Below are positions 3,656 through 25,670 of a stretch of 32,000 nt of DNA, in pieces. Source of the stretch: Aciduliprofundum boonei T469 (GTDB lineage Archaea > Thermoplasmatota > Thermoplasmata > Thermoplasmatales > Aciduliprofundaceae). A model generated the notes under the pieces. It was not told the DNA's origin and did no database searches. It saw only the letters and a list, made by a program, of their open reading frames with translations. The stretch lies in assembly GCF_000025665.1 (NCBI RefSeq), contig NC_013926.1:960001-992000 (forward strand), read 5' to 3'. The position numbers and the translations under genes were made by a program. Positions within the stretch are counted from its first letter, which is position 1. Each line of letters opens with the position of its first letter.

Positions 3656-3658
3656 TTC

Positions 3659-4790: not shown

Positions 4791-4794
4791 TCTC

Positions 4795-5688: not shown

Positions 5689-5697
5689 TTCATCACC

Positions 5698-5997: not shown

Positions 5998-6011
5998 AGC
6001 AACGGCGTCCT

Positions 6012-6782: not shown

Positions 6783-8110
6783 AACTCTACCTCCACTTCT
6801 TTGTGCTGATTTGGAACACTATGCTGGTTTGGAACATTTTGAGCGTGAGCTATTTCTTGGGGTTGCATTCCCGGACCCTTTGGTGCTTCCACTTCCTTGG
6901 AGTTCTCCTTCTCCTTTGCCATCTCTTTCTTCGCTTCTTTCATTAGTTTGGCTTCGTATTCTATCCTCTGTCGATCCACTTCGGAGATTGCGTGGTTTAT
7001 CGCTGGAACTTTCTCCAAGAGTTTCCTAACCGTTCTGTTCGTTTCGTGGAATAGTTTGTTTCCTGCCTTGTCCAAGTCCTCCTCCTTTTGAGCGTTGAGG
7101 AAAGTTAAAACATACTCTCCCCTTTTCTGCAATGCGTCTTTCGCTCCCATTCTGGACAAAATGGATATTGAGGTGCTTTCCACAACCGCTTCCTCAAAAT
7201 TGTTATCGGGCGTCATCATCCTTTCCTTGTGCCTTATTGCGTGTGCCAATTCGTGTATGAGTGTTCCAAGCATGTGATTGTAGCTCTTGCTCCTCACGAT
7301 TGTTATCTTTCCTTCTTTCATATCGTATTTCCCGTGATATTTCAACTTGTTAGTGTTGCCTATGGTGTAAATCTCCTCTACGGGTATGGGTGAGGAATCC
7401 CGTATCATCTCGTAGAATTTTCTATACTCGTTTCCCGTCAGGGTTTTGAACCGCAAATCTGGTAATGGCTTCCCGTGTGTATCGCTCTCTGCATAAACCT
7501 TCTCTGGCTTGAAATACATCCTTTCCCCTCTGGGAACTTTGGCAGTCATGTAGCCCCTTTTCAAGTCATAGTAAAGGTTCGTTAATGCTTTCTGATTATC
7601 TCCGTAATTCTCCGCTATTGCACCAGCCAAACCCATAGCACTTACCTTGTCCTGCTGCAATAGATTACCCACTTTCTCGTCCAACGCTTTGGCGAATTCC
7701 TGCGGAGATTTGGATTTTAGAGCCAATTCCCTTACATCCTTCAATTCCTGCGGTAAGTCCCTTTTCTGATATTCGTAGATAGTTTTTGGATTGGGTCTCC
7801 ATATCCAGATTGGCTGTGCGTCCTTGTTTATGTGCCTACCCAATTTCTCCCACTTGTAGCGTGGTAAAACTAATTCTCCCGTCTCTGCCAATTCTGGTTT
7901 CTGGGAGATTATTAGAAGGGTATTGTAGAGAGAATAGTTGTAGGATAGGTTCTTCACTTTGAGCAAGTCCTGTACCCTCTCAGATTTCGTTAACTCCTTC
8001 AGCCCCTCTTTGAACTTGGTGTTGAGGAACTTGCTTACATCGTCATAGTATCGCTTAACCTCCTCCTTCGAGTATCTCATCTTCTTCATTCTAACCATCC
8101 CTTCTGGCAT
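6779..8110 (-). CDS. ArdC-like protein: N-terminal ssDNA-binding-type domain plus HExxH metalloprotease domain
   Basis: YSLYNTLLIISQ ... LPRYKWEKLGRHINKDAQPIWIW follows the ArdC_N pattern (Y.G.N.LLL ... F.QW..LG..V.KGE...I). IHELAHAIRH supplies the HExxH motif (codons at 7241-7255). First gene of the operon; TTTTATATA box at ~8145-8155 on the - strand. Confidence 0.55.
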   Translation of the reverse strand: MPEGMVRMKKMRYSKEEVKRYYDDVSKFLNTKFKEGLKELTKSERVQDLLKVKNLSYNYSLYNTLLIISQKPELAETGELVLPRYKWEKLGRHINKDAQPIWIWRPNPKTIYEYQKRDLPQELKDVRELALKSKSPQEFAKALDEKVGNLLQQDKVSAMGLAGAIAENYGDNQKALTNLYYDLKRGYMTAKVPRGERMYFKPEKVYAESDTHGKPLPDLRFKTLTGNEYRKFYEMIRDSSPIPVEEIYTIGNTNKLKYHGKYDMKEGKITIVRSKSYNHMLGTLIHELAHAIRHKERMMTPDNNFEEAVVESTSISILSRMGAKDALQKRGEYVLTFLNAQKEEDLDKAGNKLFHETNRTVRKLLEKVPAINHAISEVDRQRIEYEAKLMKEAKKEMAKEKENSKEVEAPKGPGMQPQEIAHAQNVPNQHSVPNQHKEVEVEL

Positions 8111-8331
8111 TTGTTTCGATGTTCCCGATGTTTTTAGGAGGCCCTATATAAAATTGTCGATGAGCTTGAATGCAGGATTCTCTCTGTGTAGAACACATTC
8201 TCCTTGCAATCTCAAATTTTGAACCTCAATTTTTCTTCCTTCAGAATCAACAAAATCAGTATGTGCTAATATTTCTTCGGAGAAAGTATTATAATTAAGT
8301 ATACTTATTTTCTTCGAAGGAAGGTGATGTT

Positions 8332-10629
8332 ATGGAAAATCAGAAAGTAATTGATGATATAGAAGAAGCAATTGAAAAATTGATGACTCATGAACTTTTT
8401 AATGAAGCTTTTCAAAATGAAATGCTACCAAAATTAAATACTTTCAAAAATGATAAAGAGTACGTATATTCTACCTATGGAGAGAAGTTCAGAGATGTTA
8501 ACTCATTAGATGACAATACCTTAAAAAATCTCATTTCTAATTTCTTAAATAATTCTGAAAATAGACATTGGACCGGAATGCAATGGCAAAAAAATAAAAT
8601 CATAAAAAATATTGATAAATTAAGAAAAGCTCTTGTATATGCAGTTGAACACCATACTGATGATGATCCCATACCTATGCTCAAAGAATTTGAAAAGGTT
8701 CCTGGCATAAGTTATGGTATTTCAACTCCAATCCTACATGTGATGTATCCAGAGAGGTTTTGCCCTCTAAACGAAAAAACTTACAACGCCCTCATAATAA
8801 CTGGAGTTTATAATACTCTGAATCTTAGTACTACTAATAGGGGTACTCCAAAAAAGGATGGAATTAAAGATTACCCCAAAATTAATGAATTCTCTAAAAA
8901 ATTAGTTGAAAAAATAAGAGAGAAATATAATTTAGATGAAACTTTTAGTTTGTGGGAAGTGGACGCATTGTGGCACTTTATAAATGAGGCTAAGAAGAAG
9001 AGCGCTTCCGGCTGCTATTTGGAAATTATCAAGGTTCCTCGTAAAAGAGCCACTATAGATGTTTATAAAGAGACACTCATAGGAAAATATTTGTGGTGTC
9101 CAAACACAAAAGAGTATGTAAATGGTGAAAAGGGAGTTATGGAGAAAGTTAAGCCTGAGGACATTATAATCCATGATTGGGATGGTATAATATACGGGTA
9201 TTCAATAGTAGAGAAAGAGCCTGAAAGTGTCTCTAAGGAAGATTTGATAAAAATTTTTGAAAATGAGAGGTTTCTAAACGACAGTTATAAAGAAGCTATT
9301 GAAAAATATACATCTAAAAATATCAAAGGATTTTACATCGTTAAACTTAAGAATTTCAGTAGATTTGAGAAAGAATTTAGGTATTCTGAGGTTGAGGGAT
9401 TACCAGAACAACAGAATTTACAACGTTTAAGGGGAAAATATTTACTGGAGCTTGATAAGGATGTATGTGAATATTTTGGAATAATGCAAGATGGGCCACC
9501 TAAAGAGATCCAATTTGAAAAAGAGATAGGAACTCTCTTAAATGCAAAAAATCAGGTTATTCTCTATGGTCCACCCGGCACGGGTAAGACATGGATTGCA
9601 AGAAATTATGCCCTAAATGGAGTAGGAGAAAACAACGATCGTGTGGCATTCGTAACATTCCATCCATCCTTTTCATATGAGGATTTCGTAGAGAGCATAA
9701 AACCGAATGCTGATGAAGACGAATTGAGATTCAGAATTGAAGAAGGGATATTCAAGAGGATAGCAAGAAATGCGTACAATGCACTTTTAGAGTATGCTGG
9801 TGTTCATGTTTCTAAGAGATGGGATGCGAATGGTGAATTGCCCGATTTAGAGGATGAGGAGAGAAACAAAGTAAAAGATGTCCTTGATAAGGAGGATTTT
9901 CCAAAATTCTATATCATCATTGATGAGATTAACAGAGGAGATGTAAGCAAGATATTTGGGGAGCTCATAACTTTGCTGGAGAAAGACAAGCGTCTGTTTA
10001 TGGAAAATGAGATGATAGTAAGACTTCCTTATTCTAAAAAGAAATTCGGTGTGCCTCCGAATCTTTACATCATAGGCACAATGAACACTGCAGATAGGAG
10101 CATAGCGCTTATGGATGTGGCTCTGAGGAGAAGATTTGCTTTCTTGGAGATTATGCCCTCATACACCGTTCTTCTTAAATATCTTGGAATATCAAATGTT
10201 AATAAAGAAGATGATGCTGTTAAAGAGATAAAGGACTGGAAGGGAGATGATTTAAGAGATATCAAAAAACTTGCAATAAAAGCTTTATACACAATTAACG
10301 AAGAAATCAAAAAGAATTACGACAGAGACCACCAGATAGGACATTCTTACTATTTGCAGCTCAAAGATGCAACGACAGAGGATGAGCTTAAGAGCAAACT
10401 GAAATATATCTGGCTCTACGAAATTCTACCTTTACTGCAGGAGTACTTCTACGGCTCAAATGAGAACTTAGAGAAAATACTATACCCATGCAATAAGAGT
10501 GGGAATGTAGAAAATGATGTTATTGGATGCTATAAGAGAGATATAATGAGAGAGGATAAAAGTTGGAGCGTAGCGAAGTTCTTCGATGCTATAATTAATC
10601 ATAAAAAGCCCTCAGAAAAAAATGAGTGA
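8332..10629 (+). CDS. mcrB: McrB-family AAA+ GTPase (type IV restriction) with a long (~420 aa) N-terminal sensor region
   Basis: LYGPPGTGKTW (Walker A, ~9568-9591), FHPSFSYEDFVE, IIIDEINRGDVSKIFGELITLLEKDKR and IIGTMNTADRSIALMDVALRRRFAF are the McrB signature blocks. RBS GGAAGGTGA precedes the ATG. Confidence 0.85.
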   Translation: MENQKVIDDIEEAIEKLMTHELFNEAFQNEMLPKLNTFKNDKEYVYSTYGEKFRDVNSLDDNTLKNLISNFLNNSENRHWTGMQWQKNKIIKNIDKLRKALVYAVEHHTDDDPIPMLKEFEKVPGISYGISTPILHVMYPERFCPLNEKTYNALIITGVYNTLNLSTTNRGTPKKDGIKDYPKINEFSKKLVEKIREKYNLDETFSLWEVDALWHFINEAKKKSASGCYLEIIKVPRKRATIDVYKETLIGKYLWCPNTKEYVNGEKGVMEKVKPEDIIIHDWDGIIYGYSIVEKEPESVSKEDLIKIFENERFLNDSYKEAIEKYTSKNIKGFYIVKLKNFSRFEKEFRYSEVEGLPEQQNLQRLRGKYLLELDKDVCEYFGIMQDGPPKEIQFEKEIGTLLNAKNQVILYGPPGTGKTWIARNYALNGVGENNDRVAFVTFHPSFSYEDFVESIKPNADEDELRFRIEEGIFKRIARNAYNALLEYAGVHVSKRWDANGELPDLEDEERNKVKDVLDKEDFPKFYIIIDEINRGDVSKIFGELITLLEKDKRLFMENEMIVRLPYSKKKFGVPPNLYIIGTMNTADRSIALMDVALRRRFAFLEIMPSYTVLLKYLGISNVNKEDDAVKEIKDWKGDDLRDIKKLAIKALYTINEEIKKNYDRDHQIGHSYYLQLKDATTEDELKSKLKYIWLYEILPLLQEYFYGSNENLEKILYPCNKSGNVENDVIGCYKRDIMREDKSWSVAKFFDAIINHKKPSEKNE

Positions 10630-12017
10630 TACACATGGCCTATTTAGAACTGCTAGAATACAAAGAAAAAGAGCTTGAAATAGTCAAAGAGAAACTCTGG
10701 GATGGTGGGAAAAATACCATTGGTGATAGAACTTTAGATTTGCTCAAAGAGGTGAATGAGAAATTTGTAGATGAGGAAACAGGTACAAAGAAAGAGTTTC
10801 TAGACATCCGAGAATACTCCGAAAAGAGAAAAGTAAAAATTAAAGCCAAAAACTGGGTTGGATTGGTTAGCATAAATGACTGGACCATGGAAATTTTGCC
10901 TAAATTTATTTATAATCTCAAAGAAGAGGAAGACTTAAAAAATAATCGAGATGGAATAATAAAGAACCTCGTGAAAATGTTGCAGATTGCATGGAACTTG
11001 CCAATAAGAGACGTGGATATATCCTCACTAAAGATAGGAGAAAATTCCATATTTGAGGTATTGCTCACCATTTATTCAATAAAGCTCTTGGATGCCATAA
11101 AAGAGGGTTTGTACAAGGAATACATAAGAGTTTCAGATGACTTGCATTATGTAAAGGGACAGATAGATTTTGCAAAGTACTCTCGTAGATGGGAAAGAAG
11201 GCATATTATACCCGTGAATTACAACGATAGAAATCCAGACAATTTGATAAATAGAACACTTAAGTATGCAGCATACCTTGCTTCTCTATATACCCGTAAT
11301 TCCATGAATTTCTCCAATTTAAAAATGGCAGAGAATCTAATGGACTCGGTTTCTCTTGTTCCCGTTAGTGCATCTGAAATCGATTCAATAACCTTTACAA
11401 GGTTAAATGAGGGATACAAACCCTTAATCAATCTGGCTAGGGTTATAATTACAAATTTGAGTCCAGAGTTCACTGGAGGAAAAAAGGATGTGTTTGCATT
11501 TTTAATCCCTATGGAGAAGGTGTTTGAGAGATTCATAGCCAATTCGATAGTACAGAACAAATCCAAGGTTTTGGGAAATGATTGTAAAAGTTGTGAAGTA
11601 TATGTCCAAGGAGCAGATCAAAAAAAGCATCTTCTTAAAGGGAGCAGATTCATGTTAATACCTGATATAATGATAAAAATAAATGGCAAAAGGTACATCA
11701 TAGATACCAAGTACAAGCTTTTGGATACAGAGGATGAGAAAAAGTATGGTGTATCACAAAGTGATGTTTATCAGATGCTTGCCTATGCTTATGCCTATGA
11801 TACACCTAAAATTATGTTATTGTACCCAAAGGGTGTTGGTGATTTTGATAAGAAAGAATGGGAGTTTGAAAACATAAATTCTAAATTAGCAGGAAAAAAG
11901 TTGATAATAGAAACAATAGATTTAATGAAATATGATTTAGTAAAGGAGTATGATAAATTCTTGGAGGAGCTTAATAAGAAAATAGATGAACTTACCAAGA
12001 AAGAAAATACTTCGTAA
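10626..12017 (+). CDS. mcrC: McrC-family PD-(D/E)XK endonuclease subunit
   Basis: LIPDIMIKINGKRYIIDTKYK (D...D.K core) followed by SDVYQMLAYAYAY is typical of McrC. The start overlaps the mcrB stop; an alternative ATG lies at 10635. Confidence 0.8.
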   Translation: MIHMAYLELLEYKEKELEIVKEKLWDGGKNTIGDRTLDLLKEVNEKFVDEETGTKKEFLDIREYSEKRKVKIKAKNWVGLVSINDWTMEILPKFIYNLKEEEDLKNNRDGIIKNLVKMLQIAWNLPIRDVDISSLKIGENSIFEVLLTIYSIKLLDAIKEGLYKEYIRVSDDLHYVKGQIDFAKYSRRWERRHIIPVNYNDRNPDNLINRTLKYAAYLASLYTRNSMNFSNLKMAENLMDSVSLVPVSASEIDSITFTRLNEGYKPLINLARVIITNLSPEFTGGKKDVFAFLIPMEKVFERFIANSIVQNKSKVLGNDCKSCEVYVQGADQKKHLLKGSRFMLIPDIMIKINGKRYIIDTKYKLLDTEDEKKYGVSQSDVYQMLAYAYAYDTPKIMLLYPKGVGDFDKKEWEFENINSKLAGKKLIIETIDLMKYDLVKEYDKFLEELNKKIDELTKKENTS

Positions 12018-12031
12018 CAAAGCTTTTATTT
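12004..12031 (+). promoter_or_regulatory. conserved promoter element, copy 1 (AAAATACTTCGTAACAAAGCTTTTATTT)
   Basis: Shares the ATACTTCGT(G/A)A core plus a T-rich TATA-like box with copies at 12470, 16477 and 31883 (-). The ATG at 12053 is ~22 nt downstream, consistent with a leaderless mRNA. Confidence 0.45.
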
Positions 12032-12469: not shown

Positions 12470-12497
12470 AAAATACTTCGTGAGAAGCTTTTTATTC
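12470..12497 (+). promoter_or_regulatory. conserved promoter element, copy 2 (AAAATACTTCGTGAGAAGCTTTTTATTC)
   Basis: 12 nt identical to copy 1, followed by a TATA-like TTTTTATT. GGAGGT lies at 12518-12523 and the ATG at 12531. Confidence 0.45.
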
Positions 12498-12530
12498 GCC
12501 CCTTCTCTAACTTTCATGGAGGTAAGAAAT

Positions 12531-13193
12531 ATGGGTAAGGAATTAGATGAGAAGGATGCGGATGCGTTTCTCGGTGCAGGCTGGGAAGATGTGAGATACA
12601 AGGTGCCAAAAGGCAAATTTAGAGTTGCTCTGATAGATATGTTTGACTACACTACCACTATAATTGGAGATTTTGATGATGAAAGCTCTGCAAAAAAGTA
12701 TGTGCTTGATAATGAAGATTTGCTTGGGGGTTACGAAAGCTTGGTTATCTACAATGATGAGGGCAAGCTCGTGTACGATTCTGATTGGAGAGAGGAGAAA
12801 GTAGATGATGAAACTTTGAATAAATTCATAAAAATGGTGCGTGATGAACTTGGTAGCAAGGGATATGAAGAGTATGTCAAATCCTCATTGTTGATATCGG
12901 ATAAGAGCGTGAAATCCATGGATGATATAACCAAAACGGCACTTGAGGTGGATGGCACCGTCCAAGACAAGCTCAAAAACCTGTTTTTCATCCAAGCTTT
13001 TATGGGGTTGGTGAATGTGGAGCTTGGAGCTTTCATAAAATCGGCAGGAATGGAGATAGAGGCAGGCGGGTTCAAGGATCCAAAGGAGGTATACGAGCAC
13101 ATAGGAGATGTGGACGAGCTCACGGATGATGTGATATCCCTCGTATCCCTCGCTGGGCTCAAGTTCGGATACGACTTCAAGCATGGCAACTGA
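12531..13193 (+). CDS. hypothetical protein
   Basis: ATG at 12531, 7 nt after GGAGGT, preferred over the track start at 12480 (which lies inside the promoter element). 220 aa with no motif recognised. Confidence 0.55.
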   Translation: MGKELDEKDADAFLGAGWEDVRYKVPKGKFRVALIDMFDYTTTIIGDFDDESSAKKYVLDNEDLLGGYESLVIYNDEGKLVYDSDWREEKVDDETLNKFIKMVRDELGSKGYEEYVKSSLLISDKSVKSMDDITKTALEVDGTVQDKLKNLFFIQAFMGLVNVELGAFIKSAGMEIEAGGFKDPKEVYEHIGDVDELTDDVISLVSLAGLKFGYDFKHGN

Positions 13194-13334
13194 AGAGAGA
13201 AAGAATGCACATCCTCTACACTGCAAAGTCCTTTACTTTTTCTCTTTTTTACTTCAACGGGAAATGTAATAAATGATGTACATCCCTAAAATGCCGTGTA
13301 AATCTTATTCTCCTCGCAATTCAACGCAAATCTT

Positions 13335-13386
13335 GGACATTCCCTTATTATTTATAATAAATATATAGCAAGATAAGGAGATGTCC
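13335..13386. repeat. 14-bp imperfect inverted repeat flanking an AT-rich core (candidate oriT/operator)
   Basis: GGACATTCCCTTAT (13335-13348) pairs with ATAAGGAGATGTCC (13373-13386) at 12/14. The 24-nt loop is TATTTATAATAAATATATAGCAAG. Lies in the 451-bp non-coding gap upstream of the RHH-relaxase-T4CP operon. Confidence 0.4.
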
Positions 13387-13644
13387 AAAAATAGAGGGGA
13401 CTTGCATAAAAAATGAGTGAATTACACGATTTCTTGAATGTTCAAAATGGGCAAAATTCCTTACTGGCATGTTCAAAAATGTGGAAGTTTTTCATGGAGA
13501 GAATGGATTCAAAAGGAAATTCTTGATGTACATAATTTGAGGTTCAAATTCTCAAATTGAAAAGAGAAGTAGTGTAGAACAGGGAAAATTGAATGTTGCT
13601 AGACATAGACAATTTTAAATAGGGGTTCTAAAGAGAGAGAAGAG

Positions 13645-14145
13645 GTGATGAAAATGGAAGCGGGGCACGAACAAGCACATCTTCATATTGTACTGAGCAG
13701 CAAGTTGAAAGAGGATTTAGACACCATTGCGAGAATGAAGAACACCAGCACGAATAAGATTGTGAGAGAGGCATTGAAGCTCTATGTGCAAGAGGAGTTC
13801 TACAAGAAGGCGGGGTACATATCGAACATAGATAAGATGGTGGGCATGGCAGTGGCAACGGAGCTTTATCCAGAGCTGGAGGAGATAAAGAACAGGCTGG
13901 ACATGATTGCGGATTTTGTCCAGACACAGAGCTCACAGGTTGAAGAGTCTCCGGCTAAAGAAGAGAAGAAAGAAAAAATAGATTTTCCAAGGGTACCGGG
14001 ACTGCACTACAAGGTGGATGGAAACAATGTAATCTATGAGGACGGCTCAATCTACAATCTTTACCTTGGAGCTTGGCTGGTGACGAAAGAGGAAGTTGCC
14101 AAGTGGAAAAGGAAGAAGGAAAGAGAAAGGAATTTGCTGGGGTGA
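13645..14145 (+). CDS. ribbon-helix-helix (CopG/Arc/MetJ-type) DNA-binding protein, putative relaxosome accessory factor/regulator
   Basis: HLHIVLSSKLKEDLDTIARMKNTSTNKIVREALKLYV is a classic RHH beta-alpha-alpha segment. GAGGTGA RBS upstream; the true start may be the ATG at 13648 or 13654. Confidence 0.65.
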   Translation: MMKMEAGHEQAHLHIVLSSKLKEDLDTIARMKNTSTNKIVREALKLYVQEEFYKKAGYISNIDKMVGMAVATELYPELEEIKNRLDMIADFVQTQSSQVEESPAKEEKKEKIDFPRVPGLHYKVDGNNVIYEDGSIYNLYLGAWLVTKEEVAKWKRKKERERNLLG

Positions 14146-14149
14146 GAAA

Positions 14150-14668
14150 ATGATAACCAAAACGAAATTCTCAACAGGCAAGGATGCCGCGATAAAGTTG
14201 GCAAGGTACATAGAGAGAGGAATGAGCAATAACAGAGTTTATACAAGGTTATACTACGAATTTAAACCTGCGAATGATAGAGATTTAAAAGAGTTCGTGG
14301 AGGTTTCACGGGGAGCAGATGAGGACGTCCCTGCTGTCAGGCACATGATTATTGCACCAGAGAGGTTCTACGATGAAAGGCAACTGCATTATTTAGTTAT
14401 GAAAACATTACACGACTGGAGAATAGAGTCCAGAAACTATGGAATTAGATTTCTTTGGGGATTGCATTACAACACGGAGCATCCTCACAGCCACATAGGA
14501 ATGGTATCTCCATACTCAGAGGAGTTAGTCATGGAAAGGGAGGATCTGAAAGAATTCAACAAGATTGTGGAGGAAGTGTTTGGAGAGAAGCTCAAGAGCG
14601 AGAAGAAAATAGAGGAGGAGATGGAAAGAGAGATAAAAGAAGCGGAGGAGTTTGAGGTTGGAGTATAA
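14150..14668 (+). CDS. minimal MOBQ-like relaxase / mobilisation nuclease domain protein
   Basis: LWGLHYNTEHPHSHIGMVS resembles the relaxase histidine-triad motif (H.....(N/H)PH.H..(I/M)(I/V)S, as in RSF1010 MobA). N-terminal KFSTGKDAAIKLARYIERG resembles the catalytic-Tyr segment (..A.YI.RE). ATG at 14150 follows GGGGTGA. Confidence 0.55.
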   Translation: MITKTKFSTGKDAAIKLARYIERGMSNNRVYTRLYYEFKPANDRDLKEFVEVSRGADEDVPAVRHMIIAPERFYDERQLHYLVMKTLHDWRIESRNYGIRFLWGLHYNTEHPHSHIGMVSPYSEELVMEREDLKEFNKIVEEVFGEKLKSEKKIEEEMEREIKEAEEFEVGV

Positions 14669-16476
14669 TGCAGAGAACTGCATTGAGCCCAGAGAGCATA
14701 CACGAAGCAGAGCAGAGAAGGAAGGAAAGAGAGGAAAAGAGGTTAATTCTCTTTGTAGTCATAGGTTTATTGTTCTTCTTTCCACCCCTGTTCCTGCTCC
14801 CCTACATAATAGATTTCCTGCGTAGGAAAGATTACTCAAAAATACCCGTAAAGAGAGTTTTTGATAAAAGAAGATTGTGGAGTTTTTCCTTCCTGCTCAC
14901 TTCTTACTCTCTTTCTTACTTTCTTATCTTTCCTTTCTATGCGAGTTTGAAAAGGAACATACTCCCCTTCTGGAAACCATTTTTTTCATACCCGTTCTCC
15001 GAGTTTTTGGTGTATCCTCACTTCTCCCTTTACTCTAATCTTTACCTGTTCATCCTATACGGGTTGATAGTGCCGATAGTCATAAGCATTCCCCTTGCGG
15101 TAGTGTTGAAAAAGAAATACAGGTTGAGGATACCACCAGATAGTTTAGTAATCCCCACCAAGCAAGGAAACATCGTGATAGAGAAGTATAACACGGGAAT
15201 TATGGTTGTGGGTGCTCCCGGTTCTGGTAAAACGGAATTGATTAAACAAGTAATCTATCAATTCCCGCAAAAGAGAGATTATGTTTGGGTAATTTTCGAT
15301 CCCAAGGGAGATTATTACGAAGCGTTTGGAACGGAAAGAGACATAACTTTGAGCGTGAATGGTTCTTCTTATGCGTGGAACATATTTTGGGAGATAGACC
15401 CCGATAGAGCTACAACGGATGTTATAGAAATAGCCAAAGAGATATTTCCAATTGAAGAAAGAGGAGGAGAGGATAAGTTTTGGGTAGTGACTTCCCAGCA
15501 ACTCTTATCTGCCTTCATACTCACATTTTACAGACAGGCATTACAGACATACACGAAGTATTTCTCTGGTAAAGTGGATAGGGAGAGATTAAAAGAGTTC
15601 CTGCCCACGAACGAGGATTTCATGGATTTCATAAACCAGCTCACCATAGAACAAGCGTATAACCTCTTAGTCAATCAGGAAGATTTGAGGAGCGTTGCCG
15701 AATACATCAATCCACAAGCGATGAAACAGGCAAGTGGTGTGTGGAGCAATTTCTATTCCCGCATAAATGAGATATTCATAGGAGATTTCTACAAGACGGC
15801 AGGAAAGAGACAGATGAGCATAAGGGATTACATAGAAAATCCACAGGGTAGAAAGTTGTTCATAGAGTATAATGTGGAAACGGGAGAAGCCGTTGCACCG
15901 ATATTTAGATTGCTGGTTGATAGAGCGATAAAGTATTCCTTTGCCAGAGAAAATCAGTATAATAGGATAGGAGAGCCAAGAAAGAAATACTTTGTTATAG
16001 ATGAGTTCCAATTGATACCCAAGTTGAAAAGGTATCAGGAATTGGTGAATTTTGGACGCTCTTACTACATAACCTCAATCATAGGAATACAGAGCATAGC
16101 ACAGGTGATAGAGAAATACGGGAAGGATTCCGCAAATGCGGTAGTTGCCGGACACGCCTATTTGTTTGCCCTCCGTGCCTACGATAGTGCCTCCTCTCAA
16201 TTGATACGCTCAAGGATTGGAAAGAAACAGGTATGGCAGAGAGAACCCCAGCACATACAGGTTCAAGGCAGAGGAGTTTATGTTGCCGATAAGTATTCCA
16301 CAACGGAGTATTTCCCGATTAGTGAGGAGCATTTGAGAACCATGCCCGTTGGACAATGTATAATCGTCACTCCCGACGGATTTAGAGAAGTCAATCTCTA
16401 CACTTTCCAGCAGGGTAAAAGGATAATTGCGGAATTGTTGAAAATGTATAATCTTGGTTATTCTTCTCTCCTTTGA
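14668..16476 (+). CDS. type IV coupling protein (VirD4/TraG/TraD-like ATPase) with N-terminal transmembrane region
   Basis: Hydrophobic N-terminal ~150 aa, Walker A VVGAPGSGKTE, Walker B YFVIDEFQLIP, then FGRSYYITSIIGIQSIAQVIEKYG, which is T4CP-like. The start overlaps the relaxase stop (TAATG). Confidence 0.65.
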   Translation: MQRTALSPESIHEAEQRRKEREEKRLILFVVIGLLFFFPPLFLLPYIIDFLRRKDYSKIPVKRVFDKRRLWSFSFLLTSYSLSYFLIFPFYASLKRNILPFWKPFFSYPFSEFLVYPHFSLYSNLYLFILYGLIVPIVISIPLAVVLKKKYRLRIPPDSLVIPTKQGNIVIEKYNTGIMVVGAPGSGKTELIKQVIYQFPQKRDYVWVIFDPKGDYYEAFGTERDITLSVNGSSYAWNIFWEIDPDRATTDVIEIAKEIFPIEERGGEDKFWVVTSQQLLSAFILTFYRQALQTYTKYFSGKVDRERLKEFLPTNEDFMDFINQLTIEQAYNLLVNQEDLRSVAEYINPQAMKQASGVWSNFYSRINEIFIGDFYKTAGKRQMSIRDYIENPQGRKLFIEYNVETGEAVAPIFRLLVDRAIKYSFARENQYNRIGEPRKKYFVIDEFQLIPKLKRYQELVNFGRSYYITSIIGIQSIAQVIEKYGKDSANAVVAGHAYLFALRAYDSASSQLIRSRIGKKQVWQREPQHIQVQGRGVYVADKYSTTEYFPISEEHLRTMPVGQCIIVTPDGFREVNLYTFQQGKRIIAELLKMYNLGYSSLL

Positions 16477-16501
16477 AAACTTCGTGAGCATGTTTTTATA
16501 C
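16477..16501 (+). promoter_or_regulatory. conserved promoter element, copy 3 (AAACTTCGTGAGCATGTTTTTATAC)
   Basis: Same ACTTCGTGAG core plus a TTTTTATA box. The ATG at 16523 is ~22 nt downstream. Confidence 0.4.
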
Positions 16502-17720: not shown

Positions 17721-18279
17721 ACTCCAAAACCACATGGTACTTCTTCTACTTGATAGGATAAAGAGAGAGGGAATAATAACAGAAGTGTTTCCACACCACA
17801 TGGTACTTCTTCTACTGATTGAAAATGATATATGTTTGAGGTGAGAAAAATGGTTTCCACACCACATGGTACTTCTTCTACGGAGTTTGGGATGAAATAA
17901 ATAAAAAAGTGGAGAATAGGTTTCCACACCACATGGTACTTCTTCTACGTAATCTACAAAAAGATAAACAATAAATTCGTATTGGTTTCCACACCACATG
18001 GTACTTCTTCTACTGATTGAAAATGATATATGTTTGAGGTGAGAAAAATGGTTTCCACACCACATGGTACTTCTTCTACAGATATGGCAAAGGAAATAAG
18101 CAAAGTTATTGAAATTGTTTCCACACCACATGGTACTTCTTCTACCTTAACTGATGAAAACATAGATAAAATCGTTGGAAACGTTTCCACACCACATGGT
18201 ACTTCTTCTACTATCTACAATGAAGATACTGATGAGCTTGTTGCAATTATGTTTCCACACCACATGGTACTTCTTCTAC
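17721..18279 (-). CRISPR. CRISPR array 1: 9 repeats, 8 spacers
   Basis: 29-nt repeat GTTTCCACACCACATGGTACTTCTTCTAC (+ strand) at 17721 (degenerate), 17787, 17853, 17920, 17985, 18051, 18117, 18183 and 18251. Spacers are 36-39 nt. The leader on the 18280 side and the degenerate repeat at the far end imply - strand transcription; the functional repeat GTAGAAGAAGTACCATGTGGTGTGGAAAC would give the 8-nt handle GUGGAAAC. Confidence 0.97.
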
Positions 18280-18536
18280 CAAGATTAACAGATATAGTAA
18301 TACACTGGGTTTATTTAAACATTTTTAGAGCCATTTTGCGTCAAGTCTCCAATAAACCCATGAGTATATAAACTCCTGACGCAATATAAAGATTTTTTAT
18401 ATTTTTATTCTATTTTTCCCTTTGCAAGTAAAACCTGCTTATTCCTTGTTCTACTGAACACAAAAATCATAAAAATACAAAATATAATAACTTTTATCTT
18501 TCAATCTTTATTTTCTTTTAAATACTCCTGACGCAA
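18280..18536 (-). promoter_or_regulatory. CRISPR-1 leader (257 bp) with two TTGCGTCAGGAG(T)+TATA promoter-like modules
   Basis: ~93% identical by manual alignment to 24133-24389. On the - strand, TTGCGTCAGGAG-TTTATATA lies at 18384-18365 and TTGCGTCAGGAGTATTTAAAA starts at 18536. Inverted repeats: TGGGTTTATT/AATAAACCCA (18306-15 / 18351-60) and TTGCGTCA/TGACGCAA (18336-43 / 18377-84). Confidence 0.8.
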
Positions 18537-18545
18537 AATGAAATT

Positions 18546-18809
18546 TTAGAAGATCATGTCCGTTGTTCCTTTCTCTATCCCTATGTTTATCACTTTCAAG
18601 TACTTCTCGCTGGGAAGTACATAGATCGTTACAGAATCATAATCCTCCTCTATAATACCCTTTATTCCGTCCTTTATGGCTTGGAGCTGGCTTTGGGTTA
18701 TATCACCTCGGAACACGGAATTTTGTATCCAGTGCAGGTAAGAACGCAGAAATTTGTTGACCTTGTTTACCCTTTCTTCTGCAACATCATAAACTATTAT
18801 CACATGCAT
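18546..18809 (-). CDS. cas2: CRISPR-associated endoribonuclease Cas2
   Basis: MHVIIVYDVAEERVNKVNKFLRSYLHWIQNSVFRGDIT is a canonical Cas2 N-terminus. The ATG at 18809 abuts the cas1 stop, so the track start at 18848 is probably too long. Confidence 0.9.
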   Translation of the reverse strand: MHVIIVYDVAEERVNKVNKFLRSYLHWIQNSVFRGDITQSQLQAIKDGIKGIIEEDYDSVTIYVLPSEKYLKVINIGIEKGTTDMIF

Positions 18810-18810
18810 T

Positions 18811-19776
18811 CTACCACCACACCCTAAATGCCCTGTACCTCTTATCATTCATCACATGCTTCACTAGCTTGTAAGCTTCCAACCTCAAAAGCCCTCTCTG
18901 GCTCACGCTCCTTTTTAACCTCCTGTGATAAACAGTGGAGCTCATTCGGTCTTCCCATTTTCTTATGTATTTTCTCTTTCCTTGCTCATTTAGAAATACA
19001 CCGTTGAACTCTTTTCTAAAATCATCCTCAGTTATTATACCGTGATTTACTATGTCATGAATGTGTCTATAAACCATCGTGGGCTTAAATACATCTGCAA
19101 TATCCAAAGATAATGAGAATCTCCTCTCTGATGGTTCGTGGAGGTAACTTATGCTCGGGTTCAAATGCGTGTGATAAATCTCGGTTAAAACTGCAGAGTA
19201 TAGAAGAGTGTTCCCAAAGGAGATCAAAGCGTTGAGCTCGTTTATTGGCGGCCTGTAATCTCTACGCTCAAGTTGGAATTTCTTTAGCGTATAATCTAAG
19301 CTCTTGTAGTAGTATCCCCAAATCTGTGCCTCTCTGTTCATAAGCTCCTCTATGCTATCTCCCTCAACTTCCACTCTTTCAATCTTTTCTATTATCTCCT
19401 CTAATTCTTTGTTGCTCTTTTTGAGATTTCTAAGGATGTTGTGCTTTATCCCCTCTATCATCTCCTTTGCTATGTACTTTCTCTTCTCCCAAAATATGTA
19501 GTGCTTTGCCTGATTTACCACAACCTCACCAGAGATACTTCTCTCCCTAGGATATAATGTGCCTTCATAATTGCCGTACATATCAAAGAAATGCACCACC
19601 ACGCCTGAGTTGAGCACATGCTTTATGGCACCAGAGCTGAAACTAACTGGAGCTATACATGTAATGTCCCTTAGGTTGTGAATTGGTATTGATCTCTTCT
19701 CTCCCTTTCTAACCAAGTATATGGTGTTTGCCTCCCTCTTTATTATAGCCTCCTTTGTGATGTATAAACTATCCAT
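18811..19776 (-). CDS. cas1: CRISPR-associated integrase Cas1
   Basis: 321 aa. Begins MDSLYITKEAIIKREANTIYLV; SISGEVVVNQAKHY and ALISFGNTLLYSAVLTEI follow the Cas1 pattern. Sits between cas4 and cas2. Confidence 0.9.
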   Translation of the reverse strand: MDSLYITKEAIIKREANTIYLVRKGEKRSIPIHNLRDITCIAPVSFSSGAIKHVLNSGVVVHFFDMYGNYEGTLYPRERSISGEVVVNQAKHYIFWEKRKYIAKEMIEGIKHNILRNLKKSNKELEEIIEKIERVEVEGDSIEELMNREAQIWGYYYKSLDYTLKKFQLERRDYRPPINELNALISFGNTLLYSAVLTEIYHTHLNPSISYLHEPSERRFSLSLDIADVFKPTMVYRHIHDIVNHGIITEDDFRKEFNGVFLNEQGKRKYIRKWEDRMSSTVYHRRLKRSVSQRGLLRLEAYKLVKHVMNDKRYRAFRVWW

Positions 19777-19780
19777 AAAA

Positions 19781-20275
19781 TCACGCCCAGCAAAGCTCTA
19801 AATACGAGCATTTTTCACATATCTTCCGCCAAACTGGTTTTGGAGGCCTTTCTTTGCCTATCTCAACCTCCATCTCTTTAAGCAAATCTTCAATCTTCTT
19901 CTCATTTTCTTCATTCAACTCAACCATTTCCGTGTACTTCTCCTCAGGAACTGCAATCTTGCCTTTAACTTCCACTCCCCTATCCTTCAGCCATTTTAAA
20001 TAAAACAATAACTGCATTCTGGCTGCGTTGAGCATCTTGGAACTTCTCTTAACCTCGTATATCCATACTTCCCCGTTCTCCTTCCTCGTGAAATCTATGG
20101 ATACACCCTCACCAAACAGATTCTTTATCTCTCCCTTGTAACTCTTTTCGTGAAGCATCTTTCCTAAGATAATGTACTCATTTTCCAATCTCACTCCTCT
20201 GTAAGAGTACCAAGCGGCCCTCTTGCACACAACATACTCATGAACCAAGCTTCCTGTAAATTCCATATTAATCAC
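19781..20275 (-). CDS. cas4: CRISPR-associated exonuclease Cas4
   Basis: 164 aa. N-terminal Cys (VVCKRAAWY), a RecB-type core (IDFTRKENGEVWIYEVKRS) and C-terminal CEKCSYLELC (CX2CX5C). Confidence 0.85.
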   Translation of the reverse strand: MINMEFTGSLVHEYVVCKRAAWYSYRGVRLENEYIILGKMLHEKSYKGEIKNLFGEGVSIDFTRKENGEVWIYEVKRSSKMLNAARMQLLFYLKWLKDRGVEVKGKIAVPEEKYTEMVELNEENEKKIEDLLKEMEVEIGKERPPKPVWRKICEKCSYLELCWA

Positions 20276-20982
20276 TCATTGTCTATGGGATTCAAAAACC
20301 CGAATCCAAGGGAGTTCTTTTCCCCTATTCCACAGTCCGTTATGAACCTGTAAAACTTGCCATATCCCTTGGGAATCCTCTTTTGAAGCAAGGACCACAC
20401 TGAGCCTATTACTATGAATGTCTTCTCATCCTTTTTTACCACCACGGAAACCTCCTTTTGAAATTGAAGCAGGTCAAAAAGGTCCTCGTCCAGCTCCAGC
20501 TCTTCATCATAGTACACATTATACTTCTTCACTGCATTATCTTTCAATCTATCCATGAAAAAGCGCATGCTTCCCCCGTCCCTGAATGAAAAGTACTTGC
20601 TCTTCTTATTATCCTTTTGAATCACCACTGGGCTTCCACTCCTAAACTTTCCTGTGGTTTTTACCTTGAACTTTTTGAGCTCTGCAACTTTCATTGGGCC
20701 ATCGGATAGGTAAATATGCTCTAAATCCCTCAATCTTGAGTAAAGCTCACCTATGAACTTGGGATTTGGCGAGGATACTATCAAGTTTTTCTCTTTATTT
20801 GGATAGAAATCTCCGGGAGGGAATAAATCGGAGTATGTGAAGAACTTAAACCCATTTTTAGAGTGCAAATCTGAGAACTCTGTTCCATCAAGGAGCGAGT
20901 ATATGGCTCCTTGAATCGTATGCTTGTTTACCTTTGAAAATGGTAAAAATTTCTCTGGCACTAGCTTAATGAGCAATCTCAT
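20272..20982 (-). CDS. cas6: CRISPR repeat endoribonuclease Cas6
   Basis: 236 aa with the C-terminal glycine-rich loop GIGEKNSLGFGFL typical of Cas6. TTTATACTATATTTT box ~20 nt upstream of the ATG. Confidence 0.85.
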   Translation of the reverse strand: MRLLIKLVPEKFLPFSKVNKHTIQGAIYSLLDGTEFSDLHSKNGFKFFTYSDLFPPGDFYPNKEKNLIVSSPNPKFIGELYSRLRDLEHIYLSDGPMKVAELKKFKVKTTGKFRSGSPVVIQKDNKKSKYFSFRDGGSMRFFMDRLKDNAVKKYNVYYDEELELDEDLFDLLQFQKEVSVVVKKDEKTFIVIGSVWSLLQKRIPKGYGKFYRFITDCGIGEKNSLGFGFLNPIDNE

Positions 20983-21019
20983 GCGTGTAATAGAGAAAAT
21001 ATAGTATAAACATTTTGTG

Positions 21020-21790
21020 TTAAACTTCGCACCTGAGCATCTTTCCGATCTCTAGTCCCATGTCTGTTGGATGAATCCAAGAAGTTTGCTTGTTGTAAAC
21101 TATTAAATTTGCCTGCTGGTATATCTGTATGAGGTAGGGTGCCATAGGCTCTTCTACGAGTGATACTCCTCCCGGCTTTAATATTCTCTTCAACCTAGCA
21201 ATATCCTCTGGAGAGTACGGTATTACAGGAATATTTATGAATTCCAACTTTGCTCCATCTGGAAATAGAAGCCTATCAAATTTCTCCCGTAGCTCTTTGT
21301 ACATCTCTATTCTCTTCTCTAAATCCTTCTCGCTGAACCTCATTATGTCCTCCATTATCTGTTGCTGATAATCGTTGAATGCTCCAATCTCCTTGTTCAC
21401 TACATGGTAAATGCCAGTCACTCCGAACATTGAACCAAGAAGAGCTGCCATAACCGTTACCTCTTTTCTACCACCAGCAACATTCAAAAATATCCTATCT
21501 GTGCCTATTTTGAATTTCTCTATGCATATTGCCTTTGTTATCTCCTTGGCTGCAAGCAGGGCATCTTCCTCCGAAGCTATGTCATTCTTTGGGAGCACAT
21601 GCACATGTATTCTCAACTTGGGATAATGAACCTTGAGAGCTGCCTCAACCAATCTAGTGCCTGCTAGCACGAACTCATCCTTTGTTGGAAGGAGTATTAC
21701 ATCGCTCAGATACTCGCTCTCTAAGAACCTCACCATCTCGGTTATAACCGAGGGTGATTTTCCAACAGGTGCAATCATAGCCACTTTCAT
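21020..21790 (-). CDS. CARF-fold protein (Cas_NE0113/Csx14-like motifs) with possible C-terminal winged helix; candidate cOA sensor, ring nuclease or regulator
   Basis: MKVAMIAPVGKSPSVITEMVRFL and LNVAGGRKEVTVMAALL match my recollection of the G.SP.V(V/I)TE and AGGRK motifs of that family. ATG at 21790 overlaps the csx1 stop (ATGA). The C-terminal ~70 aa are wHTH-like (weak evidence). Confidence 0.55.
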   Translation of the reverse strand: MKVAMIAPVGKSPSVITEMVRFLESEYLSDVILLPTKDEFVLAGTRLVEAALKVHYPKLRIHVHVLPKNDIASEEDALLAAKEITKAICIEKFKIGTDRIFLNVAGGRKEVTVMAALLGSMFGVTGIYHVVNKEIGAFNDYQQQIMEDIMRFSEKDLEKRIEMYKELREKFDRLLFPDGAKLEFINIPVIPYSPEDIARLKRILKPGGVSLVEEPMAPYLIQIYQQANLIVYNKQTSWIHPTDMGLEIGKMLRCEV

Positions 21791-23034
21791 TTCCAATCCT
21801 CCAGGTACTTTATCAGGGTAGAGCAATCTTTCAATATACTTTTTGTGGAGTTCTTTAACTCTTCCAAATTCAAGCTATCCTTGCTCATACCGCTGTGGGC
21901 TATCAAGTTTCTCTTTGATGTTATCAGATTCCACAGGGTTATCAAATTCACCCCGCTCTTTCTCTCTATCTCATCCACATTACTTCTAAGGTAATAATAA
22001 ACTCCGTTCTTCTCTATTTTCTCCCCCCTCTTCTCCATCGCCATACCTGTTATTCCCTTCTCAACTTCAATTCTATTCTCCCTCTCTAGCCATAGGGAAT
22101 TGTCAAAGTTGGATAGGTAAAAAACGAAGTTTACTATCCATTCTCTCAAATTCTCTAAGCTCTCTCCCAATAGCCCTATCCCTGTTTGGTACTCTGCAAT
22201 CAGCAACTGCTTTCTCAGAGTTTCCTTGCTGAGCTTATCGTAGCAATCCTCGCATCCAAATTTTTCAAATATGGTGAAGTCCCTGTAGAGCAAAGTCAAT
22301 GGCTTAAAGTACTTTTCTAGCTCTTCTTTGACATCTGGAGAGAGTTTAGAGAGATTATATGCGTATTTCATCACATCCCTTATTTGATTTAGGTATATGC
22401 CCCTGCTTATCCTCTCTAACATATTTGCGTACTTTTTGGTATATCTCATACTTGGCTTTGATTCCCTAGCGTACATCTGATTTTGCCACTCTTTCATTAT
22501 TGAGGATATACCCTCGTTTCTACCGTAATCCTTGAGATCTCTGGCAGAGTATATCCACTCTGAAAAAACCAGAGCATCGGAGAGGTCAAAAATTGGGACA
22601 TAATCACCATCTCTGGACTCGTAGGCACCGTAGTAAATTCCGCGAATCTTTATGCCCCTAGCAACCTGAAGGTAGGTCATTATAACGAAGGATAAGAAAG
22701 GTATATGGCGAAAAGCGTGCGTTATATCCAGTATCACTTCATCTCCCTGCTCTAAATTATCGTTGAGTTTGTCTAAAATCTCCCAAACATCCCTCTCCTC
22801 TCTTGGAATGGAAATCTTTATTGCTTGAATTTTCTCATCTTGCGCTTCCCTTTTCAAACTTTCCAAGTTCTTCATCCCTTCCTCCGTGGTTATTACGAGC
22901 CATTTATCTGGATTGAAAAACTCACCGAGGGCGCGAGAAACGAAGGAAGTTTCAAAATAGTTATCCTTCGAGCCGAGGTAATACTTCACCCTTGAATATT
23001 TCCCCGTGCCCATAAAGGATACCAAAACTAGCAC
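21787..23034 (-). CDS. csx1: Csx1-family CARF + HEPN ribonuclease (DxTHG-type)
   Basis: N-terminal LVLVSFMGTGKY, then VILDITHAFRHIPF (DxTH(G/A) motif), and C-terminal RNLIAHSG (HEPN Rx4H). GTG at 23034 follows GGGGTGG and is preferred over the TTG at 23055. Confidence 0.8.
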   Translation of the reverse strand: MLVLVSFMGTGKYSRVKYYLGSKDNYFETSFVSRALGEFFNPDKWLVITTEEGMKNLESLKREAQDEKIQAIKISIPREERDVWEILDKLNDNLEQGDEVILDITHAFRHIPFLSFVIMTYLQVARGIKIRGIYYGAYESRDGDYVPIFDLSDALVFSEWIYSARDLKDYGRNEGISSIMKEWQNQMYARESKPSMRYTKKYANMLERISRGIYLNQIRDVMKYAYNLSKLSPDVKEELEKYFKPLTLLYRDFTIFEKFGCEDCYDKLSKETLRKQLLIAEYQTGIGLLGESLENLREWIVNFVFYLSNFDNSLWLERENRIEVEKGITGMAMEKRGEKIEKNGVYYYLRSNVDEIERKSGVNLITLWNLITSKRNLIAHSGMSKDSLNLEELKNSTKSILKDCSTLIKYLEDWK

Positions 23035-23097
23035 AAAACCACCCCACTTCTGCAAATTTCTTCCATGCCGTTCTATCCTCTTTTTCTATATTAATAT

Positions 23098-24132
23098 TTT
23101 CACAAACCATTCGGTTCTTCTTCTACAGGCTGACATCCAGCACTTTTGGGATTATGCGCAGGGGGTGTTTCCACACCACATGGTACTTCTTCTACGGGAG
23201 CAAGAAGATTATGACGGGAGGATGATAAGGATGTTTCCACACCACATGGTACTTCTTCTACTCTAAAGCAGAAAATTACAGCAATTCTTGATTCATTGTT
23301 TCCACACCACATGGTACTTCTTCTACGAAATAAAGAAATACTACGGACTCAAAGGCTACAATAGCCCAGGTTTCCACACCACATGGTACTTCTTCTACAC
23401 TACGATTTACTCAGGGAATTTATGGGAAATATACGGTTTCCACACCACATGGTACTTCTTCTACATAGAATAACAAAATACATATCAAAGCACAAGGAAT
23501 TAGTTTCCACACCACATGGTACTTCTTCTACATAAACGAAAATAGTGAATCTTCATGGGAAGATAGATGTTTCCACACCACATGGTACTTCTTCTACTAG
23601 ATAGACAAATGTTTAATATGTTGTTATCAGATATAATGTTTCCACACCACATGGTACTTCTTCTACTAGATAGACAAATGTTTAATATGTTGTTATCAGA
23701 TATAATGTTTCCACACCACATGGTACTTCTTCTACGGATATATAACAAAAAAGGATGGCTATAACATATCAGGTTTCCACACCACATGGTACTTCTTCTA
23801 CGAATACAGTCTAATAAACAATGTATTAAAAGAGTTTTATCGTTTCCACACCACATGGTACTTCTTCTACTGGAATGAAAGAGGAAGCGGTTAAAACCGC
23901 AATTGAGATTTTGTTTCCACACCACATGGTACTTCTTCTACAGAATATAATCAGGCGTTAAAAGAATACGAGGATATGGTTTCCACACCACATGGTACTT
24001 CTTCTACCGTGAGGGACAAGAGAGCGACCGCAAGAGCAATAGGTTTCCACACCACATGGTACTTCTTCTACTAGCGTGGGCGTATTGGATGAGATATTGA
24101 ATAGTTTCCACACCACATGGTACTTCTTCTAC
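23098..24132 (-). CRISPR. CRISPR array 2: 16 repeats, 15 spacers
   Basis: Same 29-nt repeat at 23098 (degenerate, ~8 mismatches), 23167, 23233, 23298, 23370, 23436, 23503, 23569, 23638, 23707, 23773, 23842, 23913, 23979, 24043 and 24104. Spacers are 32-43 nt. Leader on the 24133 side. Confidence 0.97.
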
Positions 24133-24389: not shown

Positions 24390-24457
24390 TTTCTACTCTT
24401 AGGTTTTGCATCTCAAAGTATCCTGAGAATTTCAAGTATATTTTGGGGCCTTAAGAG

Positions 24458-25660: not shown

Positions 25661-25670
25661 CTAAACCACC

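Follow-up and report, generated by a model that had tools for sequence, protein, structure and literature searches.

Does an archaeal genome carry the DNA-processing module of a bacterial-type conjugation system, and could that module mobilise the element in which it lies? The question is raised by three adjoining genes of Aciduliprofundum boonei T469, found in a stretch of 32,000 nucleotides (nt) of NC_013926.1 (positions 960,001 to 992,000, forward strand); this whole stretch is called the window below. A first-pass annotation, made from the sequence alone, had read the three genes as a ribbon-helix-helix (RHH) protein, a MOBQ-like relaxase and a VirD4/TraG-like coupling protein in an apparently archaeal context. 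Profiles, structure and host agree with an RHH protein, an HUH relaxase and a type IV coupling protein (T4CP) in an archaeal genome. We consider it probable that together they form the DNA-processing, or mobilisation (MOB), module of an integrated mobile element, consisting of a relaxosome and its coupling protein.

The three open reading frames (ORFs) lie on the positive strand at 13645-14145 (166 amino acids, aa), 14150-14668 (172 aa) and 14668-16476 (602 aa). The RHH stop codon occupies 14143-14145 and the relaxase ATG begins 4 nt further on, at 14150, while the relaxase stop codon and the T4CP start codon overlap as TAATG at 14666-14670. The genes are thus translationally coupled, as had been proposed. 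The relaxase ORF is nested in a longer, TTG-initiated ORF (14096-14668), and it contains the peptides quoted in the first-pass annotation: (KL)ARYIERG, LHYNTEHPHSHIGMVS and HYNTEHPHSHIGMVS. The RHH gene more likely starts at ATG 13654, giving 163 aa, because a Shine-Dalgarno-like GAGGTGA precedes this codon and a protein of 163 aa is called in a paralogous copy of the gene (locus L023, described below). The module is archaeal: proteins identical to the window ORFs occur in the draft assembly of A. boonei T469 (GCA_000151085.1) and in sequencing run SRR606249, and the T4CP is 90-94% identical to the products of genes in two Aciduliprofundum metagenome-assembled genomes (MAGs). A bacterial origin of the contig, which would have made the module ordinary, can be set aside.

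The 602-aa protein (14668-16476, + strand) is unambiguously a membrane-anchored T4CP of the VirD4/TraG/TrwB family. Three Pfam domains were found, TrwB_AAD_bind (PF10412, E = 2.5e-38, 132.4 bits), T4SS-DNA_transf (PF02534, E = 6.4e-25, 88.4 bits) and TraG-D_C (PF12696, E = 1.5e-14, 54.4 bits), all exceeding their cutoffs of about 20-22 bits. The best NCBIfam matches were conju_CD1115, the VirD4-like CD1115 family (1.2e-25), and TraD (2.4e-21). The protein has a Walker A motif, GAPGSGKT, at residue 182 and a Walker B motif, YFVIDE, at residue 441, as well as two N-terminal hydrophobic segments on the Kyte-Doolittle scale (residues 23-52 and 119-151). In one Aciduliprofundum lineage, the membrane part (186 aa) and the ATPase part (420 aa) are encoded by separate ORFs that overlap by 26 nt, and the arrangement is the same in three independent assemblies.

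VirB4- and T4CP-like ATPases also drive DNA import in archaea (the Ced and Ted systems), and the window T4CP has a weak P-loop match to CedB (3e-3). The module could accordingly be imagined to serve DNA uptake or export apart from conjugation of an element, by Ced- or Ted-like import or by DNA release, with the relaxase-like protein processing chromosomal DNA. We regard this as highly improbable. The CedB match is limited to the P-loop, residues 173-216, whereas the full-length matches are conjugative T4CPs. In addition, the module is found in integrase-bearing elements with variable cargo and on haloarchaeal plasmids, and the accounts of Ced and Ted that were consulted mention no relaxase.

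The 172-aa protein (14150-14668, + strand) was assigned from family profiles, conserved residues and a predicted fold. Its direct matches in Pfam and NCBIfam were all below threshold (MobL, 2e-3; PF03432, 8.5e-3; RlxS, 2.8e-5; MobP3, 1.9e-3), and all of the meaningful ones were to relaxase models. No match was found in PHROGs, nor in the Protein Data Bank (PDB) when its sequences were searched with a shallow profile of the Aciduliprofundum clade (A1). An exhaustive hidden Markov model (HMM) search, in which the Aciduliprofundum-clade relaxase alignment was run against 1.84 billion representatives, retrieved 36 proteins, most of them 170-330 aa long and with the same Tyr and His columns. PF03432 was matched by 31 of the 34 aligned relatives (the window protein and 33 of the 36 representatives), with a best E value of 2e-11. 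When the Aciduliprofundum clade was aligned with PF03432-positive relaxases (A6) in hhalign, the two profiles matched over 134 columns with 98.2% probability (E = 3e-14), and the Tyr motif (Y20 against a YI motif) and the His motifs were in register. A family profile also matched the PDB entry 9qq7, named "Relaxase" (8e-5).

The residues expected of a relaxase are strongly conserved. In ten close homologues, which are 49-93% identical to the window relaxase, Y20, H106, H111, H113 and H115 are invariant; Y20, which lies in KLARYIERG, is thus present in 11 out of 11 sequences. Y20 is conserved in at least 90% of the sequences in both the 34- and the 57-sequence alignments. Within the His cluster, LHYNTEHPHSHI, all of the 57 sequences have H106 and H113, and 90% or more have H115; the cluster aligns to AIHYNTDNIHVHIA of 9qq7.

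An AlphaFold2 model built on the 57-sequence alignment reached a pLDDT of 92.3 and a pTM of 0.89, superseding an earlier run on 11 sequences (pLDDT of 55) that we did not trust. The top Foldseek match of the model in the PDB was MobA of R1162 (2ns6; probability of 1.0, E = 3e-3, TM-scores of 0.48 and 0.45), and the top match in BFVD was an entry named "Endonuclease relaxase, MobA/VirD2" (E = 2.2e-4, TM-score of 0.53). In a sequence comparison by hmmsearch, MobA gave a weak match over residues 7-32. The identification of this protein as an HUH relaxase, which the first-pass annotation had staked on profile or structural similarity, appears to be largely right: the profile comparisons, the conserved residues and the modeled fold all agree, despite the modest TM-scores and the unmet cutoffs.

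The same fold is common to HUH Rep proteins and relaxases, and the protein is very small, with neither a helicase nor a primase domain. It could therefore be asked whether it is a rolling-circle Rep of the excised element, with the T4CP-like ATPase engaged in some other form of DNA pumping; 6 of the 34 relatives weakly match PF23343, REP_ORF2-G2P (best, 5.6e-4). This is very unlikely, given that relaxases are the best matches by sequence, by profile and by structure alike and that three histidines with an N-terminal tyrosine make up the MobA/VirD2 layout. Moreover, the gene is coupled to that of a T4CP in two archaeal classes, and in Haloarcula it lies beside genes for a NikA-like RHH protein and VirB4.

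The subfamily proposed in the first-pass annotation, MOBQ, did not hold. The window relaxase matched only three NCBIfam subfamily models, RlxS, MobP3 and MobP2, and its haloarchaeal homologue matched MobP1, MobP2, MobP3 and TraI_MobP. In a published survey of conjugative systems, the relaxase listed for NC_013926 (gene 1034) matched the MOBP(HEN) profile with an E value of 1.1e-6, and no MOBQ match is listed (Guglielmini et al. 2011, PLoS Genet, PMC3158045). These profiles favor MOBP over MOBQ, and the protein is best described as a minimal, MOBP-leaning relaxase of the MobA/VirD2 type. The resemblance to MobA noted earlier remains valid for the superfamily and the fold and fails as evidence of MOBQ membership; that MobA is the top structure match reflects the content of the PDB.

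The first gene (13645-14145, + strand) encodes a CopG-type RHH protein of 163-166 aa, a putative relaxosome accessory protein that would bind the origin of transfer (oriT). Its RHH_1 domain (residues 17-48, E = 2.8e-4) scored 21.2 bits, just above the Pfam cutoff of 20.5 bits, so the RHH assignment stands. The domain is N-terminal and the gene is directly upstream of the relaxase gene, which is the layout of relaxosome accessory proteins of the NikA/TraY/MbeC type. No match to the NikA-like family (PF21983) was found for the window protein in the Pfam search. Haloarchaeal modules also encode a protein in this place; the NikA-like threshold is exceeded by one of these proteins (E = 4.6e-8) and narrowly missed by two (8.6e-6 and 2.9e-4). 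A pairwise BLASTP comparison of the window RHH protein with that of Halomarina gave no significant match.

Upstream of the RHH gene is a noncoding leader of 368 nt (13277-13644, + strand), which we consider a candidate for both oriT and the operon promoter. Nucleotide homology to the related modules in loci L001, L002 and L004 begins exactly at 13277, with 76-86% identity, and the sequences to the left of this point are unlike. The leader is also kept in L023, the second copy of the module in T469. It contains a conserved 26-nt motif, GTGTAAATCTTATTCTCCTCGCAATT (13296-13321, + strand), which occurs once in the window (0 expected in shuffled sequences) and once per locus in 11 relaxase-bearing loci, including six (L013-L018) with a relaxase gene unaccompanied by RHH or T4CP genes. 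In these solo relaxase loci the motif is in the opposite orientation and precedes the relaxase gene by about 150 nt. It is the sole noncoding similarity between them and the window; in one BLAST pair, window positions 13296-13324 are 93% identical to L016 3699-3671. This conservation makes 13296-13321 the best candidate for the nic site, or relaxase recognition site, of an oriT that would be situated in the leader.

Searches for further copies in environmental DNA were uninformative. The 26-nt motif had 0 exact matches in metagenome contigs and a scan of viral contigs was empty, while a relaxase-based metagenome scan found only distant relatives (25-37% identity, mostly on soil-named contigs), which were of no use for a comparison of oriT.

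Two other features of the leader may be functional. An imperfect inverted repeat (13316-13405), with core arms TTGGACATTCCCTTAT and ATAAGGAGATGTCCAA and an AT-rich spacer, could be an operator for the RHH protein or an oriT hairpin; it is also present in L002 and L004, and L001 has a diverged version. A TATA-box-like sequence, ATTTTAAATA (13612-13621, + strand), which precedes the start of the RHH gene by about 25-30 nt, reads as a putative archaeal-type promoter, and this block is conserved in L001 and L002.

The homology that starts at 13277 ends with the C terminus of the T4CP, at 16444. Both edges are sharp and the flanks are unrelated to those in L001, L002 and L004, which shows 13277-16444 to be a portable cassette that has moved between different flanks. 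Measured against the copies in other Aciduliprofundum genomes, the ratio of nonsynonymous to synonymous substitutions (dN/dS) is 0.05-0.25 across the three genes, being 0.17-0.25 for the RHH gene and 0.05-0.07 for the T4CP gene. All three are under strong purifying selection.

T469 itself has a second copy of the module (L023, on DS990525.1 of GCA_000151085.1), which encodes an RHH protein of 163 aa, a relaxase of 172 aa and a T4CP of 593 aa beside another tyrosine integrase, in an element (L023 4543-11782) smaller than that of the window. Window positions 12471-16406 are 88-95% identical to L023 8000-11739, and 12471 marks the left edge of this intragenomic duplication; a further segment, 31273-31916, matches L023 13448-14091. 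The two T4CPs are 98% identical. Between the copies, the nearly identical RHH and relaxase genes have a dS of 0.04-0.05 and the more diverged T4CP gene one of 0.34, and this difference within one genome indicates gene conversion or mosaic recombination.

These observations bear on whether the module is still in use. The genes might instead have passed from bacteria to archaea long ago and persist as decayed or domesticated remnants, riding in a defense island and moving no DNA. Such a history would fit the lack of a mating-pore gene near either T469 copy, the surroundings rich in defense and toxin-antitoxin genes (McrBC, type III-A CRISPR-Cas, ParE and AbiE), the splitting of the T4CP in the lineage of L004-L006, and the existence of relaxase paralogues that have neither an RHH gene nor a T4CP gene beside them. 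A remnant would not be expected to show purifying selection of the strength seen here (dN/dS of 0.05-0.25), to be present in two copies of 95% nucleotide identity in integrase-bearing elements of one genome, to have been moved between different flanks, or to retain a conserved motif in a noncoding leader. We therefore hold it to be unlikely and return to the reading of the genes as the MOB module of a mobile element.

The channel through which such an element would leave the cell must then be sought elsewhere. As stated in the first-pass annotation, the 32-kb window contains no VirB4 or mating-pore gene. The suggestion that such genes might lie to its left was not borne out; immediately on that side lies a 320-aa tyrosine integrase (L008 7169-8131), followed by host genes for an MFS transporter, fumarase and succinyl-CoA ligase. 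In archaea, the survey cited above found a single integrative and conjugative element (ICE), that of A. boonei, and one conjugative plasmid, pNG500 from Haloarcula marismortui (Guglielmini et al. 2011, PMC3158045). Its table for this genome lists a T4CP (gene 1035) next to the relaxase and a VirB4 (gene 1075, E = 1.8e-64) 40 genes downstream of the pair (PMC3158045). Genes 1034 and 1035 are either the window pair or its 95%-identical paralogue in L023.

We infer the following course of events, which extends to the nicking and actual transfer of the element. The RHH protein would bind the leader (13277-13644) and help to build the relaxosome. The relaxase would hold a divalent metal on H106, H113 and H115 and use Y20 to nick one strand at the oriT in the leader, for which 13296-13321 is the best candidate, and it would stay covalently bound to the 5' end. 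The T4CP, acting as a membrane-anchored hexameric ATPase, would recognize the relaxase-DNA complex and pass it to a channel. This channel would be of the VirB4 type (MPF-FATA-like) and encoded outside the window, either by the VirB4 locus 40 genes away or in trans. Because the channel would come from one of these two sources, the element would be either an ICE whose pore module is distant or an integrative mobilizable element.

Several results weigh against this reading. The window relaxase is under every curated cutoff, with 16.8 versus 24.6 bits for PF03432, 17.5 versus 28.5 bits for MobL, 23 versus 850 bits for RlxS and 17.9 versus 150 bits for MobP3, and its TM-scores against relaxase structures are a borderline 0.45-0.55. 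The core of the candidate nic site differs by lineage, reading ATCCTGC in L001 and L002 and ATTCTCC in the window. The nick core consensus of MOBP systems is YATCCTG|Y, which the L001 and L002 sequence resembles and the window copy lacks; we take this resemblance as only a lead. The T4CP gene is split into the 186-aa and 420-aa ORFs in one Aciduliprofundum lineage (L004 10519-12316; also L005 and L006). No VirB4 or pore gene was found in the 32-kb window or within 10 kb downstream of the second T469 copy. Finally, relaxase-dependent transfer has been shown in no archaeon (FEMS Microbiol Rev 2025; NAR 2025).

The rest of the window gives an outline of the element. Two blocks are conserved with L004, an Aciduliprofundum MAG contig: 3040-8227 and the mob cassette itself (13277-16444). 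The first block (- strand) is 77-85% identical to L004 51-4323 and encodes a Cas4-like nuclease, a 443-aa protein and several proteins without assignment. L004 also has the mob module, linked to this block across different cargo. The block boundary at 3040 coincides with a compositional step at about 3000: G+C content is 0.32-0.36 with a positive GC skew up to 3000, and 0.42-0.45 with a strongly negative skew from 3001 to 8000. The Cas4-like PD-(D/E)XK nuclease (3659-4564, - strand; PDDEXK_1/Cas4, TIGR00372 at 4.5e-11, phrog_1706 at 3e-24) lies far from the cas operon, which has a cas4 of its own at 19781-20275.

The 443-aa protein (6779-8110, - strand) had been called ArdC-like. It has a zincin motif, HELAH, and around this motif zincin similarity at subthreshold levels (DUF6782, 4e-4; MPTase-PolyVal, 1.4e-3, with 19.1 versus 27.5 bits; the anti-restriction family phrog_7245, 6e-3). 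The ArdC_N domain itself was absent in Pfam, NCBIfam and PHROGs searches, and NCBIfam gave no match at all. The ArdC-like label is weakly supported. The region upstream of this gene (8085-8227) is 89% identical to an intergenic region, L013 6755-6891, beside a solo relaxase gene, which hints at a regulatory region common to these elements.

The solo relaxases occur in the same MAGs, are 48-60% identical paralogues and lack RHH and T4CP partners (L013 4910-6508 and L016 3845-5434; also L014, L015, L017 and L018). Each is followed by a conserved convergent gene pair encoding proteins of 76-78 aa and 281-286 aa, with toxin-antitoxin and AbiE genes around.

Between the two backbone blocks lies variable cargo, a restriction system composed of McrB (765 aa) and McrC (463 aa) at 8332-12017 (+ strand; Pfam McrBC, 2e-70, and AAA_5, 3.8e-20; NCBIfam McrB, 1e-42, and McrC, 4e-28). 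At this position L004 has genes for a histidine kinase and an M48 peptidase. On the other side of the mob cassette, between the T4CP gene and genes for proteins of 43 and 118 aa, is a complete type III-A CRISPR-Cas locus (17721-31243), comprising an array with a 29-nt repeat, cas2, cas1, cas4, cas6, csx/CARF genes, csm2-5 and cas10. In the second element (L023 11739-14091), the T4CP gene and the 43/118-aa genes are only 1.7 kb apart, and for this reason the integrated element may have acquired the CRISPR-Cas locus as cargo.

Two spacers of the array (17816-17852 and 18014-18050) are identical and belong to a 125-nt internal duplication. The seven spacers showed no match beyond 12-16 nt to the window and related loci. 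The T4CP gene and the array also share 18 nt in inverted orientation, but this match consists mostly of repeat sequence and was rejected as chance.

A promoter- or operator-like motif, AAWACTTCGTRA-N6-TTTTAT, was found four times in the window, versus 0.03 expected: at 12006-12029, 12472-12495 and 16476-16499 on the positive strand and at 31888-31911 on the negative strand. A fifth copy is in the second element, at L023 8001-8024. Those in the window lie just upstream of genes for a 134-aa Zn-ribbon protein, a 225-aa protein, a 375-aa membrane protein and a 118-aa protein, respectively, and they stand on either side of both the mob cassette and the entire CRISPR-Cas locus. Their placement suggests that these genes may constitute a coregulated set of the element. 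Att-type direct repeats were sought by comparing the integrase-proximal junction with the window, which gave only chance matches of 12-15 nt, and no tRNA or Rfam feature was found in the window.

Beyond Aciduliprofundum, the module has counterparts on plasmids. The only matches in PLSDB were haloarchaeal, among them plasmids of Halomarina sp. BND7 (NZ_CP100457.1) and Haloarcula pelagica (NZ_CP126163.1) and the record NZ_CP119562.1. Like the window, these plasmids encode an RHH protein, a relaxase of 172-221 aa (172 aa in Halomarina) and a T4CP, in the same order and with the same coupling. The haloarchaeal T4CP is 29% identical to that of the window (E = 9e-56), and the relaxase is 28-30% identical by tblastn. 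The haloarchaeal relaxases, unlike the window protein, are above the PF03432 threshold and carry the name "relaxase" in RefSeq; likewise, their RHH partners match the NikA-like family, whereas the window RHH protein matches RHH_1 only. In H. pelagica the module directly follows a gene for a VirB4-like ATPase (CD1110 family, 1.2e-43), while in the window no VirB4 gene adjoins it. MOB-suite types these plasmids as nonmobilizable, even though they have a relaxase and a T4CP and one of them has VirB4. Therefore, standard typing tools miss this relaxase clade.

The 172-aa protein may represent a clade, archaeal for the most part, of minimal MOBP-like relaxases with a single domain, always paired with T4CPs in Aciduliprofundum and Halobacteria and found beside VirB4 in Haloarcula. 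We suggest tentatively, with rather less assurance than for the MOB module as such, that this clade could supply the missing relaxase of at least one branch of archaeal conjugation. Should the enzyme prove active, some Euryarchaeota would be using the bacterial single-stranded DNA (ssDNA), relaxase-dependent pathway with a relaxase cut down to the bare nuclease domain. The module and its haloarchaeal counterparts beside VirB4 provide a concrete candidate for an archaeal relaxase family, one that was flagged once, in a supplementary table of 2011, and apparently has not been followed up since. If nicking and transfer were demonstrated, relaxase-dependent conjugation would be established for Archaea, with one of the smallest natural relaxases. 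A. boonei and the genetically tractable haloarchaea offer direct test systems for it.

How does the locus compare with known systems? Its type was already catalogued in 2011, and the first-pass annotation was in this respect a correct rediscovery of a known kind of system. The ICE of Guglielmini et al. (2011, PMC3158045) is from the same genome and has the same type of adjacent relaxase/T4CP pair; that work gives HMM matches only, with no account of the RHH gene, the minimal 172-aa architecture, the second copy, a candidate oriT or the archaeal family. What is added here is the second T469 copy, the portable cassette, the oriT candidate, the MOBP assignment and the evidence of purifying selection.

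Among solved structures, the best match is the relaxase domain of MobA from R1162/RSF1010 (2ns6), a stand-alone domain of about 185 aa that aligns with the window relaxase over 128 columns. The two proteins have a common layout, in which an N-terminal Tyr motif is followed by a His cluster near residues 105-120. They differ in that structural identity is only 16%, with TM-scores of 0.45-0.48, and the window relaxase stops after two helices, whereas natural MobA continues into a C-terminal primase domain. The module as a whole resembles the relaxosomes of MOBP systems (NikA/NikB of R64; TraJ/TraI of RP4 with the T4CP TraG) in combining an RHH accessory protein, a His-cluster relaxase and a T4CP. 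Unlike them, the window relaxase scores far under the family cutoffs, and the motif reads ATTCTCC; bacterial MOBP relaxases are 300-1000 aa long and have C-terminal domains.

The Sulfolobus plasmids pNOB8 and pING and the Thermococcus plasmid pT33-3, whose conjugation has been demonstrated by experiment, share with the window an archaeal host and the use of VirB4- and VirD4-like ATPases for DNA transfer. Recent reviews describe the relaxases of archaeal conjugation systems as unknown, with none on the Sulfolobus plasmids or pT33-3 (NAR 2025; FEMS Microbiol Rev 2025). No relaxase has been found on those plasmids, whereas the window module has one. It would therefore represent the ssDNA pathway of the bacterial type, as opposed to the archaeal pathway that has no relaxase.

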